Of a stretch of DNA of 64,000 nucleotides, positions 6,396 through 57,390 are shown one piece after another. Below the pieces are notes generated by a model. It did not search any database. It was not told the origin of the DNA and worked only from the letters and a program-made list of their open reading frames with translations. The translations under genes and the position numbers were made by a program. The DNA lies in the NCBI RefSeq assembly GCF_056712565.1, contig NZ_CM160072.1; one strand, given 5' to 3'. Every line of letters begins with the position of its first letter. Within the stretch, counting starts at the first letter, position 1.

Positions 6396-6410
6396 CGAGG
6401 CTGGCTTTTA

Positions 6411-7235
6411 TCACTGAGTCAGTCCAACAAAGCGACTTGCTTTAATATAAATCCCTGGCTTCAGGTGCCCAATATACTGTAACTGCGTTTCTGGTTTAAA
6501 TGCAGAGACATCACCACTACGCATATGCATCAGATCGGCAGGGCTAATCCAGCCTGATTGCGCCAGCGTAAGCGGATGCCCGGCTTTGGCAAATGCATCA
6601 GTGACAAATTCCGAACAAAACCACGACTTTTTGTCTCCTTCGCCCACACTGCTTAACTGCGCTTTCGCCAGGCCGCTGACGCACTGTTGACGAAAATCCT
6701 CGGAGAACGGATTTAGTGAGCACATCTGGCGAGTCACCATAAATGGAATAAATTCGACAATGCCGCGATAGTTATAACCGCTATCTTTAATTTTGTTGGC
6801 GAACGCGGTGATTTCTGTGGCTTGTTGCGGGGTAAGATCCGGGACTCGTAAGACGAAAAGCTTATCACTATGCTTTATGGCTTTTTTAAGGGAAACAATC
6901 TGGACGCCAGCGCCTGTCGCTTCGGCAACGTTATTATCTCCCAAATAGATTGCAACGTGACTCACAGAGGAAGTGCTGAATACGCGGATACCAAATGAGG
7001 TTACCCCAAGGCTTGAGGAGAAAAGCAAATCGCCGGGTTTGAGATCTGGTTCCGTTATTTCTTTTATTGATTGTTCGGTGAAAGAGCTTTGATGCTGGAA
7101 TTTAACAGCCCATGTTTTCGCCTCGGCATTTACCACTGTGGCTGATGAGTCTGGCTGGCTGATATCAACGGTACAGGCCGAAAGTAAAAGAAAGCAGGGG
7201 AGAAGCAGGCGGCAGTACGCCTTTGGTTTATCCAT
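6411..7235 (-). CDS. yaeF: Lipoprotein YaeF (NlpC/P60-like peptidase family)
   Basis: 274-aa ORF from MDKPKAYCRLLLPCFLLLSAC (lipobox); the ORF-track start at 7244 is 3 codons further upstream. Confidence 0.75.
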   Translation of the reverse strand: MDKPKAYCRLLLPCFLLLSACTVDISQPDSSATVVNAEAKTWAVKFQHQSSFTEQSIKEITEPDLKPGDLLFSSSLGVTSFGIRVFSTSSVSHVAIYLGDNNVAEATGAGVQIVSLKKAIKHSDKLFVLRVPDLTPQQATEITAFANKIKDSGYNYRGIVEFIPFMVTRQMCSLNPFSEDFRQQCVSGLAKAQLSSVGEGDKKSWFCSEFVTDAFAKAGHPLTLAQSGWISPADLMHMRSGDVSAFKPETQLQYIGHLKPGIYIKASRFVGLTQ

Positions 7236-27242: not shown

Positions 27243-27374
27243 ATACCTGTAAAAGGCGCTAAAAATAGCGACTTGGGCGATTTTTGCAGCAAACGATTCA
27301 AAAGATGAGAAAAACCGTTGACGAAGGGTGAGGCAATCCGTAATATTCGCCTCGTTCCCAACGGAACACAACGC

Positions 27375-27451
27375 GGAGCGGTAGTTCAGTCGGTTAGAAT
27401 ACCTGCCTGTCACGCAGGGGGTCGCGGGTTCGAGTCCCGTCCGTTCCGCCA
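27375..27451 (+). tRNA. aspV: tRNA-Asp (GTC anticodon); island-associated tRNA locus
   Basis: Exact repeat of the aspU sequence; immediately followed by an AT-rich region and the accessory island. Confidence 0.95.
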
Positions 27452-28565: not shown

Positions 28566-28904
28566 TGAGGTTTTATACCAGACGTTTTAGTGGTACTTAG
28601 CAAGAAAGAGCATTTCTCTTTTCTATTTTACACTATGGAACAAGTCTGCTAATTAATTTTACATATGTCTTTTAGGAGTGGTAAAAACTTTCCTAAAGTT
28701 ATTTATTGTCCTCTCAACATATAAGCTGTAATTCGAGTTTTCGGTTGAACTGTCAAAAATACATCATATACATCTATAAAACAGCAGGTACGGTTAATTA
28801 AGAATTTTTATTCGTGATTAACCGTACTTTGTCATTTTATCCTATAATGTTAAATTGCCTTTTTAAAATATAACAATAATGCAGATGAAAGACTCCCTGG
28901 TAAC

Positions 28905-29384
28905 TTAGAAAATCCGTTCACTCCAAAGGCTGTATGCACTGGTTCCGGCGACGCTGTGCTCCCAATTGATGCTCTCATAGGTAAATGACACAGACTCTTC
29001 CGCCTGCCCTGGACTGTCGTTAATGGTATGGGGAACGGTAAGGCCGATGTTTGAGAGCCGGGCGTTAGCCAGTTTCAGCTTGTAGTACGGTTCATTAATT
29101 CCAAAGCGGTTGGTGCGGTAGAATACAAAATCACAGGTCAGACATTCATTCTCTGAAATGGCCTTGCCCAGCAGAGGGGAGGATTTGTCCACCGGTTTCG
29201 TGATGGTCAACTCCTGATGGTTGACATTCTGCGCACGGCTCAGACCATGGGACAGTGACGTCACCATGATCTGATCCTGATGTGCAATCTGGGCTTTGTT
29301 ACCGATGGACGGCATTGACGAGCATCCGGATGAAATCAGCCCCTGAAGTTCTCCGTTCAGTGTCAGATAGACGGGATTTGCCAT
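28905..29384 (-). CDS. hcp: Hcp-family T6SS tube protein (second hcp copy)
   Basis: 159-aa product from MANPVYLTLNGELQG... with AAGGAG RBS 8 nt upstream; Hcp-like N-terminus; the ORF-track start at 29405 is an extension. Confidence 0.8.
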   Translation of the reverse strand: MANPVYLTLNGELQGLISSGCSSMPSIGNKAQIAHQDQIMVTSLSHGLSRAQNVNHQELTITKPVDKSSPLLGKAISENECLTCDFVFYRTNRFGINEPYYKLKLANARLSNIGLTVPHTINDSPGQAEESVSFTYESINWEHSVAGTSAYSLWSERIF

Positions 29385-49212: not shown

Positions 49213-49731
49213 ATGCCAACCCCATGTTACATTTCAATTACAGGTCAGACCCAGGGGAACATCACTGCCGGTGCTTTCACCGCAGATTCTGTCGGCAATA
49301 TCTACGTGCAGGGACACGAAGATGAAATGCTGGTGCAGGAGTTTCTGCATAACGTTACTGTTCCAACCGATCCGCAGTCTGGTCAGCCTTCCGGGCAGCG
49401 TGCTCACAAACCGTTCATTTTCACCGTGGCGCTGAACAAAGCCGTTCCGCTGCTGTACAACGCGCTGGCCTCCGGTGAAATGCTGCCGAAAGTGGAGCTG
49501 CACTGGTGGCGTACCTCTGTTGAAGGCAAGCAGGAGCACTACTTCACCACACGTCTTACTGACGCGACGATTGTGGACATGAACCTGCATATGCCGCACT
49601 GCCAGGACCCTGCACAGCGTGAGTTTACGCAATTGCTCGCAGTATCACTGGCCTACCGTAAGGTTGAGTGGGAGCACATCAAATCCGGTACTTCTGGTGC
49701 CGATGACTGGCGTGCACCGCTGGAAGCATAA
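49213..49731 (+). CDS. hcp: T6SS tube protein Hcp (TssD)
   Basis: 172-aa ORF, Hcp-like, preceded by AAGGAG RBS. Confidence 0.9.
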   Translation: MPTPCYISITGQTQGNITAGAFTADSVGNIYVQGHEDEMLVQEFLHNVTVPTDPQSGQPSGQRAHKPFIFTVALNKAVPLLYNALASGEMLPKVELHWWRTSVEGKQEHYFTTRLTDATIVDMNLHMPHCQDPAQREFTQLLAVSLAYRKVEWEHIKSGTSGADDWRAPLEA

Positions 49732-49951: not shown

Positions 49952-51934
49952 ATGTCCTTAAAAGGTCTTCGCTTTACGCTGGAGGTTGACGGCCAGGAGC
50001 CGGACACCTTTGCAGTGGTGAATTTCCGGTTAATCCAGAACCAGTCTTATCCGTTTGTGATGAGTGTGGATGTCGCCAGCGATTCTTTTATGCAGACGGC
50101 GGAGATGCTGCTGGAGAAGAACGCAACGCTGACTATCTGGCAGGGTGTCATCCCGCTGCGTTATGTCACCGGCGTGGTGGCGGGCTTTGGCATGCAGGAG
50201 AACAACGGCTGGCAGATGCGTTATCACCTGCGTATTGAGCCGCCGTTATGGCGGTGCGGGCTGCGGCGGAACTTCCGTATCTTCCAGCAGCAGGATATCC
50301 GGACGATATCGGCCACATTACTGAACGAGAACGGCGTCACAGAGTGGACGCCGCTGTTTTATGAGGACCATCCGGCGCGGGAGTTCTGTGTGCAGTACGG
50401 GGAGTCGGACCTGGCGTTTCTGGCGCGGCTGTGGGCGGAGGAGGGGATTTTCTTCTTTGAGCGGTTTGCGGCGGACAGTCCGGAGCAGAAGCTGACGCTG
50501 TGCGACGATGTGGCGGGGCTGTCACAGGCGGGGGAGCTTCCGTTTAACCCGGACACATCGGCAGGAGCGGAGACGGAGTGTGTCAGTATGTTCCGTTATG
50601 AGGCGCATGTCCGCCCGTCATCGGTGCAGAGCCAGGATTACACGTTTAAGGTGCCGGACTGGCCGGGGATGTATGAGCAGCAGGGTGAGAGCCTGAACGG
50701 ACAGCTTGAACAGTATGAAATATTTGATTATCCGGGAAGGTACAAGGATGAACAGCACGGCAAGGATTTCACGCTGTACCGGATGGAGAGCCTGCGCAGT
50801 GATGCGGAAAAGGCCACAGGGCAGAGTAATTCGCCGAAGCTGTGGCCGGGGACGTGGTTTACGCTGACGGGGCATCCGCAGAAGATGCTGAACCGTGAAT
50901 GGCAGGTGGTACAGAGCATTCTGTCAGGAGACCAGCCGCAGGCGCTTCACGGCAGCCAGGGGAGAGGAACCACGCTGGGAAATCAGTTAGAGGTGATACC
51001 GGCGGACCGGACGTGGCGTCCACGGCTGCAAAGCAAACCGAAGGTGGACGGGCCACAGAGCGCCATTGTCACCGGGCCTGCGGGAGAGGAAATCTTCTGT
51101 GATGAACATGGCCGGGTACGGGTGAAGTTTCACTGGGACCGTTATCACGGGATGACGGAGGAGAGTTCGTGCTGGGTGCGTGTGTCGCAGGCGTGGGCGG
51201 GGCCGGGATTTGGTAATCTGGCGATACCGCGGGTGGGCCAGGAGGTGATTGTTGATTTTCTGAACGGGGACCCGGACCAGCCGCTGGTCATGGGCCGGAC
51301 GTACCATGAGGACAACCGTTCGCCGGGGAGCCTGCCGGGGACGAAGACGCAGATGACGATACGGTCGAAGACCTATAAAGGAAGCGGCTTTAATGAACTG
51401 CGGTTTGAAGACGCCACGGGCGGTGAACAGGTCTATATCCACGCGCAGAAGAACATGGATACGGAGGTGCTGAATAATCGGACGACGGATGTGAAGGCTG
51501 ACCACACGGAGACCATTGGTAACGACCAGAAGATAACGGTGGGGTTGGGCCAGACGGTGAATGTGGGGAGCAAAAAGGAAGGTGGTCATGACCAGAAAGT
51601 GACGGTAGCGAACGATCAGCATCTCACGATAAAAAATGACCGGCACAAGGTTGTAAATAACAACCAGACAAGCAAGGTGACGGGAACTGATACCGAAGAA
51701 GTCGTCAAAAAACAGAGTATTAAAATAGGTGATAATTACGAACTGAAAGTTGAGCATGGTACAAATATCATATCTGGGGACAGTATTGAGCTAATTTGTG
51801 GGCAGGGAGAGAGCGGGACTTGTTCCATAAAACTGGAGAAAACAGGAAAGATAATAATACGGGGGACGGAGTTTCTATTTGAGGCTACCGGTCCTGTAGA
51901 TATTAAAGGAAAAGATATTCATCTGAACGGATAG
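49952..51934 (+). CDS. vgrG: T6SS spike protein VgrG (TssI)
   Basis: 660-aa ORF with gp27/gp5-like core; no long C-terminal effector extension; GGGAGG RBS. Confidence 0.9.
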   Translation: MSLKGLRFTLEVDGQEPDTFAVVNFRLIQNQSYPFVMSVDVASDSFMQTAEMLLEKNATLTIWQGVIPLRYVTGVVAGFGMQENNGWQMRYHLRIEPPLWRCGLRRNFRIFQQQDIRTISATLLNENGVTEWTPLFYEDHPAREFCVQYGESDLAFLARLWAEEGIFFFERFAADSPEQKLTLCDDVAGLSQAGELPFNPDTSAGAETECVSMFRYEAHVRPSSVQSQDYTFKVPDWPGMYEQQGESLNGQLEQYEIFDYPGRYKDEQHGKDFTLYRMESLRSDAEKATGQSNSPKLWPGTWFTLTGHPQKMLNREWQVVQSILSGDQPQALHGSQGRGTTLGNQLEVIPADRTWRPRLQSKPKVDGPQSAIVTGPAGEEIFCDEHGRVRVKFHWDRYHGMTEESSCWVRVSQAWAGPGFGNLAIPRVGQEVIVDFLNGDPDQPLVMGRTYHEDNRSPGSLPGTKTQMTIRSKTYKGSGFNELRFEDATGGEQVYIHAQKNMDTEVLNNRTTDVKADHTETIGNDQKITVGLGQTVNVGSKKEGGHDQKVTVANDQHLTIKNDRHKVVNNNQTSKVTGTDTEEVVKKQSIKIGDNYELKVEHGTNIISGDSIELICGQGESGTCSIKLEKTGKIIIRGTEFLFEATGPVDIKGKDIHLNG

Positions 51935-52040: not shown

Positions 52041-53087
52041 ATGATAGAAATGAAAAATAACACGCCATTTCCTTTGTTGTCATTTGAAAAATATGGTCGT
52101 TATGGTCTTTTGTTTGATGTTATTGCTATTAAAATGTCATTGCGAATTAAAAATGGATTTTATGCTGATCTTGCTGAGTTTCAAAAAGAATTGTCCATGT
52201 CTGATGAATACTATGGGGAGTCTGAAACAAGTAGTCTAAAATCTGAAACAGACTTAGTTCTTTGTAAAAGAAATACAGATATTCACGTGACAGGTAGTGC
52301 TCATGCCCCTTCAGGGGATAAGTCTCAGTGGAAGGCTTGTGTGAGGGTTAATAGTTTTTCTAAAGAACTGAGTTTATCTGGTGTCCGCTACTTACAATAT
52401 GAGCGAAATCGTTGGCAGATGAGCTTACCAGATAAAATTATTAATGTTCCTCTACGCTATGAGCTTGCTTACGGTGGTATTTGGCAACCAGATGGTATGG
52501 AGAAATTGGTTTTTTCAGCAAACCCTGTAGGTTGTGGATATTATCCTGATATTTCTCAACTTAATACAAGTTGTCAATATAAACTCCCACAAATAACCAG
52601 CTCTGCTTTGTCAGAAAACGCTACCATTTTTAATGGGGAATCTGACTTTTTTCAAGGTGTTGGCCCTGTATCTCGATGGTGGAAAAGTCGCCTCCAGTAT
52701 GCAGGAACCTACAATGAAGTATGGCGTGAAAAGCGCTATCCCTATTTGCCGGATGATTTTGATGAGCGGTTCTACAATAGTGCTCATCCGGATATGATAT
52801 ACACGGGGTTTCTCTCTGGCGATGAAAACATCTCTCTTGAAGGTTTTTTTAAATTTGAACAGGTTGTTAAGACAAAATTGCCAGGTATACGACCTGTACT
52901 TATATTAAAAACCAAGCATAATACATCACATATGTTCTTACCTGTTGCGGATACAATGGTTATCGATTTAAGTCGACAGGAAATATACCTTACCTGGAGA
53001 TTAACAATACCTGATTTTTTTGGAATGAAAGAAGGAGTGCTGAGTTGTATTATTCCTGAATGTATAGGGAAAAAATATTATGGGTAA
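52041..53087 (+). CDS. Putative DUF2169-family T6SS adaptor protein
   Basis: 348-aa low-GC ORF directly between vgrG and a DUF4150/PAAR-like effector, the canonical adaptor position; assignment by context and size. Confidence 0.55.
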   Translation: MIEMKNNTPFPLLSFEKYGRYGLLFDVIAIKMSLRIKNGFYADLAEFQKELSMSDEYYGESETSSLKSETDLVLCKRNTDIHVTGSAHAPSGDKSQWKACVRVNSFSKELSLSGVRYLQYERNRWQMSLPDKIINVPLRYELAYGGIWQPDGMEKLVFSANPVGCGYYPDISQLNTSCQYKLPQITSSALSENATIFNGESDFFQGVGPVSRWWKSRLQYAGTYNEVWREKRYPYLPDDFDERFYNSAHPDMIYTGFLSGDENISLEGFFKFEQVVKTKLPGIRPVLILKTKHNTSHMFLPVADTMVIDLSRQEIYLTWRLTIPDFFGMKEGVLSCIIPECIGKKYYG

Positions 53088-54519
53088 CTATCATATCGGG
53101 GATGGTGAATGTAGATTTAGAGTCGTGTGTTCTTCACCAGATGTATGTGAAGTAGGAGGTTACAAGGTTCCTTTTGACAGTTACCAGACTTTAGATAGTG
53201 AAAGACAGTACAGTTCAACGGTATGGGCGCGTGGATGCAGAGCTTTAAATGTTGGTTCAGTGATTGCTGGAACTCAAAGTAATGCCGGTAAAGGTGTCAT
53301 ATCCGGTACATCTCAAGGAACGGGTGACTGTGTTATTTTAACGGGAAGTCCGACTGTAACAATAGAAGGGAAACCTGTTGCTTATCATGGTTCAGTTGTT
53401 GGGATTAATAACCACAACTGCCTTGGTAAATTGTATACCAAAATAAAATCACCAATGATTTCTGTCATTGATAGAACTTTTAATTATGAAAGGACTGCTG
53501 AAGTAATACACGATTTACTGCTTCTGAAGGATCTCCTCTCTGTTGGTAATATTTTTGACGGAGATATTTCACCTGAGGTTAAAAATGATTTATTTCAAAT
53601 AAAAGATCCTGACCAATCATGGGGGGAGTTTTTTTCAATAAAGAATATCAGAGAATCTCTCAGGAATGGTATTGAAGGAGATAAATCTCAGATCAGAGAA
53701 TGGTTTGGAGAGAACACACTTACTCAAATGGGGAATGGAGCAATCACCACTTTACATGGTGTGGCGGATTTAGCCTTAGTTACATTCGATGCTCTGTTAG
53801 ATACGGCAACGGCAACGGTTGCTTGCCCGATAGGCGAAGATGGGTTATGTGAACAGGCAAATATAAATTTAAATGAAAAAGAACAGGCTTTATTTAATAT
53901 TAGTAATTCATTGATAAATGGGCAAGCATGGGATGCACTTAAAAAAATGATAATGGATACAAATAATGGTGATCAGATTGCTCTGGTGCATTTTGCCAGC
54001 TTTTTATGGGGCTTTATGATACCCGCAAAAATACCAGAAGAAAATATCTCTGGGAAAGTATTTGTAGAGCCAGTAGTTTTAGAAGGTGGTGCTGGTGGCA
54101 ATTGGACAGTATTTGATGAGGTTTTAGATTCAAATGTAATAAAGCAATTGACTTTAACAGGCTGTGGAGCGGCCTGTGGGGAAATGTTGCTTAGGGATAG
54201 GTATATTTTTGTCACGCAAAATGTAATTGGAACAGAATTAACATCTATGACGTCGCTGGCAAACAAGCTTAATAAATTTGATGTCGGCTGGGAAGGGAAT
54301 GCAGTGAGCGAATCTAGTTTATATGCCCTCAGTAATACTGGTTCATGGGGAGCAATGATGTGGGATTCTGGAAGTAAAGTAGGGCATTGGGTACTTGTTA
54401 AGGGTGTTGATGATGCTGGGAATGTGATAATATATGATCCATATCAAGGGAGTCGATATCTGATGACTGAACAGGAATTTAAGGAGGTATGGAATGGGCA
54501 TAGTGTTTACAAACCATAA
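53080..54519 (+). CDS. DUF4150/PAAR-like T6SS effector with C-terminal papain-like cysteine-peptidase toxin domain
   Basis: 479-aa ORF; N-terminus carries DUF4150 motifs (SPDVCEVGG, SGTSQGTGD, GSPTVTIEGKPVAYHGS...NNHN); C-terminal ~130 aa has a Cys/His/Asp arrangement (GCGAACGEM ... GHWVLVKG ... IYDP); start overlaps the upstream gene by 8 nt. Confidence 0.75.
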   Translation: MGNYHIGDGECRFRVVCSSPDVCEVGGYKVPFDSYQTLDSERQYSSTVWARGCRALNVGSVIAGTQSNAGKGVISGTSQGTGDCVILTGSPTVTIEGKPVAYHGSVVGINNHNCLGKLYTKIKSPMISVIDRTFNYERTAEVIHDLLLLKDLLSVGNIFDGDISPEVKNDLFQIKDPDQSWGEFFSIKNIRESLRNGIEGDKSQIREWFGENTLTQMGNGAITTLHGVADLALVTFDALLDTATATVACPIGEDGLCEQANINLNEKEQALFNISNSLINGQAWDALKKMIMDTNNGDQIALVHFASFLWGFMIPAKIPEENISGKVFVEPVVLEGGAGGNWTVFDEVLDSNVIKQLTLTGCGAACGEMLLRDRYIFVTQNVIGTELTSMTSLANKLNKFDVGWEGNAVSESSLYALSNTGSWGAMMWDSGSKVGHWVLVKGVDDAGNVIIYDPYQGSRYLMTEQEFKEVWNGHSVYKP

Positions 54520-54784
54520 TATTGATTTGTTATCGGTTGAATTTGATGAGATTACAAAAAATTGTAATTACACTTTTAGTGTAGATGGAGAGACGGCTAT
54601 CTTTACTGCTAGAATATCAATAATAAGAAATATAAAGGGAATTAAATATAGCGAAGAACTTGATAAATTTATAATGTCAATAATGCCATTGCAGCCTAAA
54701 GTATCAAAAATTTTGGGAGGTGTTACTTGGGATTGTATTTGTGGTAAGGAAGTTGGATTTCCTGTGAGATTAATTGGTAAGTGA
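54494..54784 (+). CDS. Putative cognate immunity protein
   Basis: 96-aa ORF overlapping the effector 3' end by 26 nt, same strand, low GC; no signal peptide. Confidence 0.5.
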   Translation: MGIVFTNHNIDLLSVEFDEITKNCNYTFSVDGETAIFTARISIIRNIKGIKYSEELDKFIMSIMPLQPKVSKILGGVTWDCICGKEVGFPVRLIGK

Positions 54785-55041: not shown

Positions 55042-55920
55042 ATGGAACTTAAAAAATTGATGGAACATATTTCTATTATTCCCGATTACAGGCAAGCCTG
55101 GAAAGTGGAACATAAATTGCCAGATATTCTATCTGTTAACTATTTGCGCCGTTATTTCTGGTGCATAATGCTGGGAAGATATAGAGGATTTGGGGAAACA
55201 CATCTCGATTTTTTGAAGTGATATGGTGATTTTGAAAATGGTATTCCTGTTCACGATATCATTGCCAGAGTTGTATCCTGTATCAGTCCTGCAAAATTTC
55301 ATGAGTGCTTTATTAACTGGATGCGTGACTGCCATTCCTCAGATGATAAAGATGTCATTGCAATTGATGGAAAAACGCTTCGGCACTCTTATGACAAGAG
55401 TCGCCGCAAGGGAGCGATTTATGTCATTAAAATCCGTCTTCATATTATTTGCGATGTCCCTGATGAACTTATTGATTTCACGTTTGAATGGAAAGAGCTG
55501 AAGAAATTATGCATGGCAGTCTCCTTTCGTTCAATAATAACAGAACAAAAGAAAGAGCCAGAAATGACGGACAGATATTATAGCATTTCTGCTGATTTAA
55601 CCGCAGAGAAGTTCGCCACAGCGAACCGAAATCACTGGTACGTGGAGAATAAGCTGCACTGGCATCTGGACGTGGTAATGAATAAAGACGACTGCAAAAT
55701 AAGAAGAGGAAATGCAGCAGAATTATTTTCAGGGATACGGAAGATCGCTATTAATATTTTAACGAAAGATAAGATACTCAAGGCAGGGGCAAGATGTAAG
55801 ATGTGAAAAGCAGCTGCGGACAGAGACTACCTCGCGTCAGTCCTTGCGGGGGCGGGCTTTCGTATTCTTGCTCTGCAAGGGATGATAAAAAGTGCAACTT
55901 TATTCCACGCAGCTATTTAG
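55042..55920 (+). mobile_element. Decayed ISAs1-family (H-repeat-associated) transposase remnant
   Basis: Fragments in several frames match an H-repeat/ISAs1 transposase: [26 protein letters not shown]..., [12 protein letters not shown]...[40 protein letters not shown], then C-terminal [21 protein letters not shown]...[31 protein letters not shown]; frameshifts plus an internal deletion of ~150 codons. Confidence 0.7.
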
Positions 55921-56034
55921 ACAGCGTACAGTAAACAAACGAAAGTTGTTATTTCAATGGTCAGGGCAAGAGCATGAAGTGTTTACTACACACTATGCTC
56001 TTGTCCTGGAGTCAGGTCTTGTTTGGAGGGATAA

Positions 56035-56538
56035 ATGGTAGATATTGTCGAGGCCGATAAAACGGATATTTATTTCATTCAGGAGAGTGTTTATGGCAAA
56101 ATCGGGTTGCCAGCTTTTGGTAATACAATAGGACCATCCGCACAGCAAGTTGTTAAAAAGGTATTCGCTGTCGTTAAAGAACGAGATAAGACACATGCAA
56201 AACAGAGATTATTGTTGGAATATAATGGTAACAAACTCTGGATGAATGCTATTGATGGCAGTGAAGCTATCCTACCAACAGAATTTTCTAAGCGATACGA
56301 ACTTTCATTATTCAATACTACTAATTTTGGAGAAGATCCTTTTCCTGATGTTAATTTATATAATAATATGAAATCAAGTTTTTTTGTAAGGTTTGGTGGA
56401 ACATCCCATCCCGAGGCTTGGGCTATTTATAATGCAAGTACGAAAGAGGTTAAATATATAGAAACTGCAAGAGAAATTGATAAAATATTCAGTGATTTTA
56501 ACTTGAGTGGTACATTGCCAATTCACATTGGTCAATGA
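56035..56538 (+). CDS. Hypothetical protein (orphan, low GC)
   Basis: 167-aa ORF with GGAGGG RBS, no signal peptide, AT-rich codon usage; no motif recognised. Confidence 0.5.
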   Translation: MVDIVEADKTDIYFIQESVYGKIGLPAFGNTIGPSAQQVVKKVFAVVKERDKTHAKQRLLLEYNGNKLWMNAIDGSEAILPTEFSKRYELSLFNTTNFGEDPFPDVNLYNNMKSSFFVRFGGTSHPEAWAIYNASTKEVKYIETAREIDKIFSDFNLSGTLPIHIGQ

Positions 56539-56607
56539 TTTTTTAAATTGTGTGATTAAATAATTGAACATTAATGATGATTTATAGCATCATTATTATT
56601 CTATAAC

Positions 56608-57120
56608 ATGAATAAACGGATTGAATGTGTTATGTTAAAAATGAGTTTATACGTAATAATATTGTTATTTTCCCTTCAGTTTAGTGCAGCCATTACTGGC
56701 AAGGAAAGTGAGGTTGTTTCACCATTATTAATGGATGTTAATCCTTCACTAACAATGGAAAATATTTCTGAATTATCCACATCATCGGAACCATCGCAAC
56801 AGGGGGTATTTCCTGTAATATGTACTCGACTTCATCCTGGCTCCGTAATGAAACGTCAGTTATTAACCGGCTGGGGGCCTGTTTTTATAATTGGTGATGA
56901 TCCTTTTTCTCTGCGCTGGATGAGTGAACATCTGGAGATCCTTAAATCGCTAAATGCCCTTGGTTTGGTTGTTAATGTTGAATCAGTAGAACGAATGGAG
57001 GTATTACAGCAGCGGGCTGATGGGTTATTGTTATTGCCAGTTATCTGCGATAATTTTGTGCAAGCTCTGCAATTAAATGCTTATCCGGTATTAATCACAG
57101 AGATGGAAATATCACAATGA
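56608..57120 (+). CDS. Hypothetical secreted protein (orphan, low GC)
   Basis: 170-aa ORF with predicted N-terminal signal peptide (MSLYVIILLFSLQFSAA); no motif recognised. Confidence 0.5.
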   Translation: MNKRIECVMLKMSLYVIILLFSLQFSAAITGKESEVVSPLLMDVNPSLTMENISELSTSSEPSQQGVFPVICTRLHPGSVMKRQLLTGWGPVFIIGDDPFSLRWMSEHLEILKSLNALGLVVNVESVERMEVLQQRADGLLLLPVICDNFVQALQLNAYPVLITEMEISQ

Positions 57121-57145
57121 TTAATAACATAATTACTGCTAATAA

Positions 57146-57390
57146 TATGGTGATTTTGAAAATGGTAATCCTGTTCACGACACCATAATCAGAGTTATGT
57201 CCTGTATCCGTTCAGTAAAATTTCACGAATGCTTTATTAACCGGATGCGTGAATGTCATTCTTCAGACGACATAGACGTCATTGCGATTGATGGAAAAGC
57301 ACTTCCACACTCCTGTGATAAAAGTCGTCGCAGGAGAGCGGGCTTTCGTAGTCTTCCCCGACTCTCCCCGGCCCTAAACACAACCCCCAC
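57146..57390 (+). mobile_element. Second ISAs1-family transposase fragment (yafF-like)
   Basis: Encodes [66 protein letters not shown], a diverged direct repeat (~85% identity by eye) of 55213-55410; abuts the yafV 3' end. Confidence 0.6.

Follow-up and report, generated by a model that had tools for sequence, protein, structure and literature searches.

A T6SS locus of Escherichia coli matching the effector-immunity pair Cpe1-Cpi1, with a predicted CdiA-CT-type entry module and a rare valine allele

The 64,000-nucleotide stretch of contig NZ_CM160072.1 (assembly GCF_056712565.1) that was analysed here, called the window, contains a 479-codon open reading frame (ORF) followed by a 96-codon ORF in an hcp-vgrG unit of a type VI secretion system (T6SS), and the question raised by this locus is which toxin and immunity protein it encodes and how the toxin gets to its target. 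A preliminary description, made from the sequence alone, had read the C-terminus of the longer product as a papain/C39-like cysteine protease with a cytoplasmic target, and had likened it to T6SS effectors with type II topoisomerases as their cleavage targets. The protein is almost certainly that very effector: since its sequence and that of its neighbor are identical to those of the characterised proteins, we assign the locus 53080-54784 to the published pair Cpe1-Cpi1 of the E. coli T6SS-1 island that adjoins a tRNA-Asp gene. In the PDB sequence search, residues 338-479 were 100% identical to chain 9l5u_A (E 2.6e-94), and the 96-residue product was 100% identical to chain 9l5u_C, named Cpi1 by the depositors. 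The 9l5u structure belongs to the work of Song et al. (PLoS Biol 2025, PMC12136450) on the T6SS cysteine protease effector Cpe1 of E. coli ATCC 11775 and its immunity protein Cpi1. The full-length protein equals Cpe1 of ATCC 11775 in 478/479 residues, the only difference being located outside the crystallised domain, and the ATCC 11775 locus has the same hcp-vgrG-DUF2169-cpe1-cpi1 order in a virtually identical DNA region. At the DNA level the effector gene is 100% identical to that annotated as cpe1 in NZ_OZ546991.1 (WP_000528853.1), where the immunity gene is annotated as cpi1 (WP_000513317.1); these names are used in recent RefSeq records. In a scan of NCBIfam, Cpe1, Cpi1 and the DUF2169 protein all remained without a family, and the cpe1/cpi1 naming by the annotation pipeline PGAP presumably rests on something other than the scanned hidden Markov models of NCBIfam. 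All the testable defining features of the Cpe1/Cpi1 family were found, namely toxin homology, the catalytic triad, a downstream immunity gene and an association with contact-dependent delivery. The effector-immunity pair is therefore already known, having been published in 2025, and is not a new discovery.

The same effector had probably been described earlier as Tsap, the product of gene 1835 of the extraintestinal pathogenic E. coli strain RS218 (Lu et al., Microbiol Spectr 2023, PMC10434152), judging from the architecture given there: 1437 bp, with PAAR at 1-324 bp and C39 at 1041-1437 bp, as the last gene of the T6SS cluster. Tsap was reported as a T6SS-dependent antibacterial effector whose toxicity resides in its C-terminal part; that study identified no substrate and focused on engineered peptides (PMC10434152).

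The peptidase assignment was analyzed at the level of domains and residues. Pfam detected two domains in Cpe1, Tox-PAAR-like at residues 15-115 (E 1.4e-11) and Peptidase_C39 (PF03412) at residues 352-474 (E 1.2e-5). Direct translation placed the proposed catalytic residues in the expected order and contexts, with Cys362 in LTLTGCGAACG, His436 in GSKVGHWVLVK and Asp453 in NVIIYDPYQGS. The PDB search also aligned residues 189-477 with StbD-CT of Citrobacter rodentium (8ssk_A, E 8.3e-82), in which Cys183, His258 and Asp275 correspond to this triad; mutation of any one of the three abolishes the peptidase activity of StbD-CT (bioRxiv 10.64898/2026.05.07.723447). The Cys/His/Asp arrangement did not arise by chance. 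The fold of Cpe1 is papain-like/C39, and its closest structural relatives are ComA and LahT, which are C39 peptidase domains (PMC12136450).

The order Cys...His...Asp alone does not discriminate between this peptidase and a periplasmic papain-fold hydrolase of the cell wall (NlpC/P60 or Tae amidase type), and peptidoglycan amidases are common among T6SS effectors that have a Cys-His active site. It is nevertheless extremely improbable that the C-terminal domain of Cpe1 is such a hydrolase. The Pfam match is C39, with no NlpC/P60-type family at E <= 10, and the nearest structural relatives are the C39 domains already mentioned; the toxin acts when it is expressed in the cytoplasm (PMC12136450, PMC10434152), its substrates are cytosolic (PMC12136450), and Cpi1 has neither a signal peptide nor a lipobox. 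The cell-wall reading was rejected as refuted by published biochemistry.

A C39 match together with the double-glycine specificity of ComA and LahT could also indicate a housekeeping peptidase that matures leader peptides for the export of bacteriocins or quorum peptides. ComA (3K8U) and LahT (6MPZ) are leader-peptide processing domains of this kind, fused to an ATP-binding cassette (ABC) exporter; neither of them is a secreted toxin or is paired with an immunity protein, and with Cpe1 as the phmmer query they remained below detection in the PDB at E <= 1. We give next to no credence to this explanation for Cpe1, which matches the Peptidase_C39 profile without the exporter fusion of the PCAT/AMS type: there is a PAAR-like domain and no ABC-transporter family among the Pfam matches of the 479-residue protein, its gene belongs, together with an immunity gene, to the hcp-vgrG-DUF2169 unit of a T6SS cluster, and the protein mediates T6SS-dependent competition (PMC12136450, PMC10434152). 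Architecture and published competition assays thus led us to reject a maturation peptidase; Cpe1 has the C39 fold, but it is not a transporter maturation domain.

The activity of Cpe1 as a cytoplasmic protease is documented for a toxin domain identical to that in the window. By photo-crosslinking and in vitro assays GyrB and ParE were found as its substrates, cut at G101-G102 and G97-G98, respectively, within the LHAGGK loop, a conserved part of the ATPase domain; the double-glycine specificity is common to Cpe1, ComA and LahT (PMC12136450). Cleavage of GyrB and ParE blocks topoisomerase activity, chromosome segregation and growth. A C362A mutant, which the preliminary description had proposed to make, is already published; it is no longer toxic, does not cause filamentation and retains only a minor part of the advantage that the T6SS gives in competition (PMC12136450). 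This mutant also bears on the "antimicrobial peptide" framing of Tsap, by which the natural activity would be membrane disruption by an amphipathic helical peptide at the C-terminus. According to Lu et al., membrane-active synthetic peptides were derived from the C-terminal sequence, but these are engineered derivatives (PMC10434152), and the toxicity of the native domain is lost with the single C362A substitution and neutralised by Cpi1 binding (PMC12136450). Because the C362A loss and the neutralisation by Cpi1 fit an enzyme, the membrane-disruption reading is disfavoured; we regard it as having hardly any probability, and it was rejected on these two grounds.

The immunity protein agrees with a cytosolic toxin. 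Cpi1 has no lipobox, as had been stated in the preliminary description, and no hydrophobic N-terminal segment; its N-terminus is MGIVFTNHNIDLLSVEFDE, and the maximum Kyte-Doolittle mean over 15 residues is 1.0, at residue 70. In the PDB sequence search it was distantly related to the StbI/CdiI chain 8ssm_C (E 6e-9). Cpi1 leaves the active site of Cpe1 uncovered and binds a neighboring hydrophobic concave surface (exosite), where it competes with the substrate, with a dissociation constant of 8.6 nM vs 343 nM for the ParE ATPase domain (PMC12136450). Cpe1 matters for its irreversible proteolytic inactivation of both bacterial type II topoisomerases and for an immunity that works via an exosite. 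The inference drawn from sequence alone was correct, the catalytic cysteine included, and the value of re-examining it is mainly negative.

Other proteins invite comparison with the pair. EvpQ of Edwardsiella piscicida was grouped with Cpe1 by Song et al. as an interbacterial papain-like cysteine protease effector (PMC12136450); going by the coordinates quoted for it, EvpQ is a separate small protein of about 175 residues, in contrast to the PAAR fusion of Cpe1. StbD-CT/StbI of C. rodentium DBS100 (8ssk, 8ssm) shares the GyrB and ParE targets, and loss of super-helicity, failed nucleoid segregation and filamentation were reported for StbD-CT by an independent laboratory (10.64898/2026.05.07.723447). 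StbD-CT is the C-terminus of a CdiA-like protein, located behind a VENN motif, and uses OmpF and YajC; Cpe1, in contrast, is a PAAR-like fusion with a lineage-specific linker of 70 residues, has GEFFSIKN in place of VENN and is fired by the T6SS.

The similarity to StbD-CT also concerns the middle of the protein, residues ~130-340, which had been described as being without a recognised domain. That statement stands for Pfam and NCBIfam, with nothing significant in Pfam between the PAAR-like and Peptidase_C39 domains, but not for the PDB, where residues 189-336 align to the entry domain and linker of StbD-CT. The identity is 37% over 126 aligned residues in the entry domain, 55% in the linker and 56% in the peptidase. 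Cys249 and Cys257 of Cpe1 correspond to the disulfide pair Cys70/Cys77 of StbD-CT; Cys366, corresponding to Cys187, and Gly336-Gly337/Ala338, corresponding to Gly157-Gly158/Ala159, are likewise conserved. In StbD-CT a seven-helix N-terminal part is the cytoplasm-entry domain, which uses the inner-membrane protein YajC, and between it and the C39 peptidase lies a flexible linker, in which the peptidase cleaves in cis after Gly157-Gly158 when conditions are reducing; intoxication requires this self-cleavage (10.64898/2026.05.07.723447). By homology, residues ~187-315 of Cpe1 would form an entry domain of the type found in C-terminal regions of CdiA proteins (CdiA-CT), allowing YajC-aided passage from the periplasm to the cytoplasm. 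In the reducing cytosol the peptidase may then cut its own linker after Gly336-Gly337, freeing a toxin domain that would start at Ala338. The match of the crystallised Cpe1tox chain (9l5u_A) to the window begins at Ala338, which is exactly the N-terminus predicted after auto-processing. That Cpe1 has an entry domain of the contact-dependent inhibition (CDI) type and a processing site was already pointed out in the 2026 preprint, where it is presented as the first example of a CDI entry module in a T6SS effector (10.64898/2026.05.07.723447).

In order to find further relatives of the middle region, we performed an exhaustive phmmer search with residues 116-335 of Cpe1 as the query against 1.84 billion representative proteins (50%-identity level). 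This search replaced a word-indexed protein search with the same residues, which had given just four near-identical fragments or frameshift products and was uninformative on distant relatives. The exhaustive search gave 62 matches, with homology limited to residues ~187-323, and 58 of them were distant relatives. The two cysteines of the pair were present at their positions in 56/58 and 58/58 of these relatives. A VENN-like motif, the hallmark of CdiA-CT regions, stood directly before the match in 39 of the 42 relatives that have sequence upstream of it. None of the 58 had a PAAR-like domain or the segment 116-186, and a single one had a C39 peptidase, the rest carrying diverse C-terminal toxins. 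For residues 116-186 the search matched only near-identical E. coli fragments; conceivably they dock the effector to the DUF2169 adaptor. Apart from Cpe1, the entry-domain family is found almost only behind the VENN motifs of CdiA proteins, and Cpe1 is the sole such T6SS lineage detected at this representative level. Because most of the relatives with upstream sequence carry VENN-like motifs and all relatives lack both the PAAR-like domain and the 116-186 segment, Cpe1 is, by these comparisons, a fusion of a PAAR-like carrier and a lineage-specific 70-residue linker to a complete CdiA-CT-type module. The VENN motif is absent from Cpe1, which has QSWGEFFSIKNIRESL at that position; since it has no VENN motif and starts with a PAAR-like domain, it borrows the CdiA-CT module and is not itself a CdiA protein.

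Several points weigh against the combined reading of Cpe1 as an effector that enters by way of YajC, processes itself and kills through GyrB and ParE. As to killing, overexpression of the cleavage-resistant variants GyrB(dG102) and ParE(dG98) gave no protection from Cpe1, either in co-expression or in competition assays, which makes further substrates possible, and 51 cytosolic proteins were crosslinked to Cpe1-Bpa (PMC12136450). Topoisomerase cleavage could then be real and yet not the decisive lesion. It is unlikely, in our judgement, that Cpe1 kills mainly via other substrates, although we take this objection more seriously than any of the alternatives above: only GyrB and ParE were cleaved in vitro among eight essential candidates, the full LHAGGKF motif occurs in no other E. 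coli protein, and the wild-type GyrB and ParE were still present during the protection experiments (PMC12136450); moreover, the independent work on StbD-CT arrived at the same two targets and phenotype (10.64898/2026.05.07.723447). The exact scissile bond is also given inconsistently, being placed between the glycines in the Results and after them in the Discussion of PMC12136450, whereas for StbD the preprint reports a cut of GyrB between Gly101 and Gly102 and auto-processing after Gly-Gly (10.64898/2026.05.07.723447). As to delivery, the experiments on YajC-dependent entry and auto-processing were made with StbD-CT, and we infer the same steps for T6SS-delivered Cpe1 from homology, with an entry domain just 37% identical to that of StbD. 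Finally, the copy of Cpe1 in this window departs from its relatives at one position of the entry domain.

That position is the single difference from Cpe1 of ATCC 11775: the window has Val303 (GTG), whereas ATCC 11775, like most E. coli, has Glu303 (GAG). Glutamate is invariant in this column, which is occupied in 56 entry-domain relatives, and the valine departs from the entry-domain motif G-[DN]-Q-x-A-L-E. An exact 71-mer with the valine codon was found in 15 of the 298 complete genomes having the segment. Among the listed perfect matches to the whole locus are three avian pathogenic E. coli strains of serotype O1/O2:K1:H7. Because valine stands where all 56 relatives have glutamate, the entry function may be altered in this Cpe1. 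It is possible, but in our estimate doubtful, that all parts of the following proposal hold together: that the T6SS brings Cpe1 to the periplasm only, that Cpe1 then crosses by means of its YajC-dependent entry domain, that it cleaves itself in a redox-dependent manner between Gly337 and Ala338, and that E303V is a natural variant with impaired or altered entry. The periplasm-first, CDI-type entry and the subsequent self-cleavage in this proposal were already put forward in the 2026 preprint (10.64898/2026.05.07.723447). If the proposal is true, E303V would be a ready-made genetic probe of the cell-entry step, and this rare allele could help to test the way in which a CDI entry domain serves a T6SS effector.

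The distribution of the locus was then considered. Of 5,426 complete E. coli genomes, 330 have the DNA from 52041 to 54784 at >=99% identity, ATCC 11775 among them, and always on the chromosome. Strain A30 has DNA in common with the window through the DUF2169, PAAR-like and entry domains at 96% nucleotide identity and then diverges, its effector being a 331-residue ORF followed by an unrelated 104-residue ORF for which Pfam gave no match. In O145 RM9467-C1 and related strains, a peptidase remnant and an intact, identical cpi1 are located behind a truncated vgrG in a yncG island, and this cpi1 is an orphan immunity gene. Because the A30 and O145 variants both break at the domain junction near residues ~313-317 (window ~54018-54031), this junction is a recombination point between the entry domain and the toxin. 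The coordinates of the variants around the break-point are 5040-6483 in L002 and 4527-6767 in L003.

The features of the locus and of the DNA downstream of it are presented in Table 1. The end of the DUF2169 gene overlaps the start of cpe1 by 8 nt, and the overlap between the end of cpe1 and the start of cpi1 is 26 nt; a Shine-Dalgarno sequence, AAGGAGG, is located just 5' of the cpi1 ATG.

Table 1. Coordinates in the window of the hcp-vgrG-DUF2169-cpe1-cpi1 unit, of the segments of Cpe1 and of downstream features.
Feature	Coordinates	Strand	Basis
hcp, T6SS tube protein, first gene of the hcp-vgrG-adaptor-effector-immunity unit	49213..49731	+	ORF; Hcp family protein in NZ_OZ546991.1
vgrG, T6SS spike, 660 aa, carrier for the PAAR-like effector	49952..51934	+	ORF; annotated Vgr family protein
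DUF2169 T6SS accessory/adaptor protein	52041..53087	+	Pfam DUF2169 E 7.8e-72; RefSeq name
cpe1 (probably = tsap), PAAR-like cysteine protease effector, 479 aa	53080..54519	+	ORF, PDB, Pfam, RefSeq
PAAR-like (DUF4150) domain capping VgrG, residues 15-115	53122..53424	+	Pfam Tox-PAAR-like E 1.4e-11; PAAR_motif E 0.0024
Lineage-specific linker, residues 116-186	53425..53637	+	no Pfam/NCBIfam match
Predicted CdiA-CT-type (StbD-like, YajC-dependent) cytoplasm-entry domain, residues 187-315, Cys249/Cys257 pair	53638..54024	+	alignment to 8ssk_A
Codon 303, GTG (Val)	53986..53988	+	comparison with ATCC 11775
Gly336-Gly337-Ala338, predicted auto-processing site in the inter-domain linker (residues 316-344)	54085..54093	+	maps to StbD-CT Gly157-Gly158/Ala159
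Papain-like/C39 cysteine peptidase toxin domain, residues 345-479	54112..54516	+	9l5u_A identity; Pfam
Catalytic codons Cys362, His436 and Asp453	54163-54165, 54385-54387, 54436-54438	+	translation, triad mapping
cpi1, cytosolic immunity protein, 96 aa	54494..54784	+	9l5u_C identity; WP_000513317.1
Frameshifted ISAs1 transposase pseudogene	about 55042-55806		between cpi1 and yafV
Hypothetical ORF, 167 aa	56035-56538		no Pfam, NCBIfam or PADLOC match
170-aa ORF, PFL_4695 integrating-conjugative-element domain, hydrophobic N-terminus	56608-57120		TIGR03765 E 1.7e-35
Second ISAs1 fragment	within 55042-57390		between cpi1 and yafV

The whole window is collinear with NZ_OZ546991.1 at 99.98% identity. 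Following the annotation of that record, the order is ldcC, an rRNA operon, the tRNA-Asp gene, yafT and then a complete T6SS cluster with tssM, tssA, tssH, tssK, tssJ, tagH, tssG, tssF, tssE, tssC and tssB. The T6SS core is followed by the divergent hcp-vgrG-DUF2169-cpe1-cpi1 unit, insertion sequence remnants and yafV. The G+C content falls from 52-60% in the T6SS core to 30-42% between the 3' end of vgrG and about position 57000, which fits an exchangeable cargo module.

Some further observations concern the surroundings of the unit. The T6SS island begins just past the tRNA-Asp gene (27372-27448) and yafT, and a second hcp gene (28902-29381, minus strand) is located at the far end of the cluster from the hcp gene in Table 1. 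A PADLOC scan gave nothing for Cpi1 or for either of the two ORFs downstream of it. The stretch from cpi1 to yafV (55042-57390) has a low G+C content throughout. A second papain-like protein is encoded in the window by yaeF (6408-7232, minus strand), whose product NZ_OZ546991.1 lists as a "YaeF family permuted papain-like enzyme".

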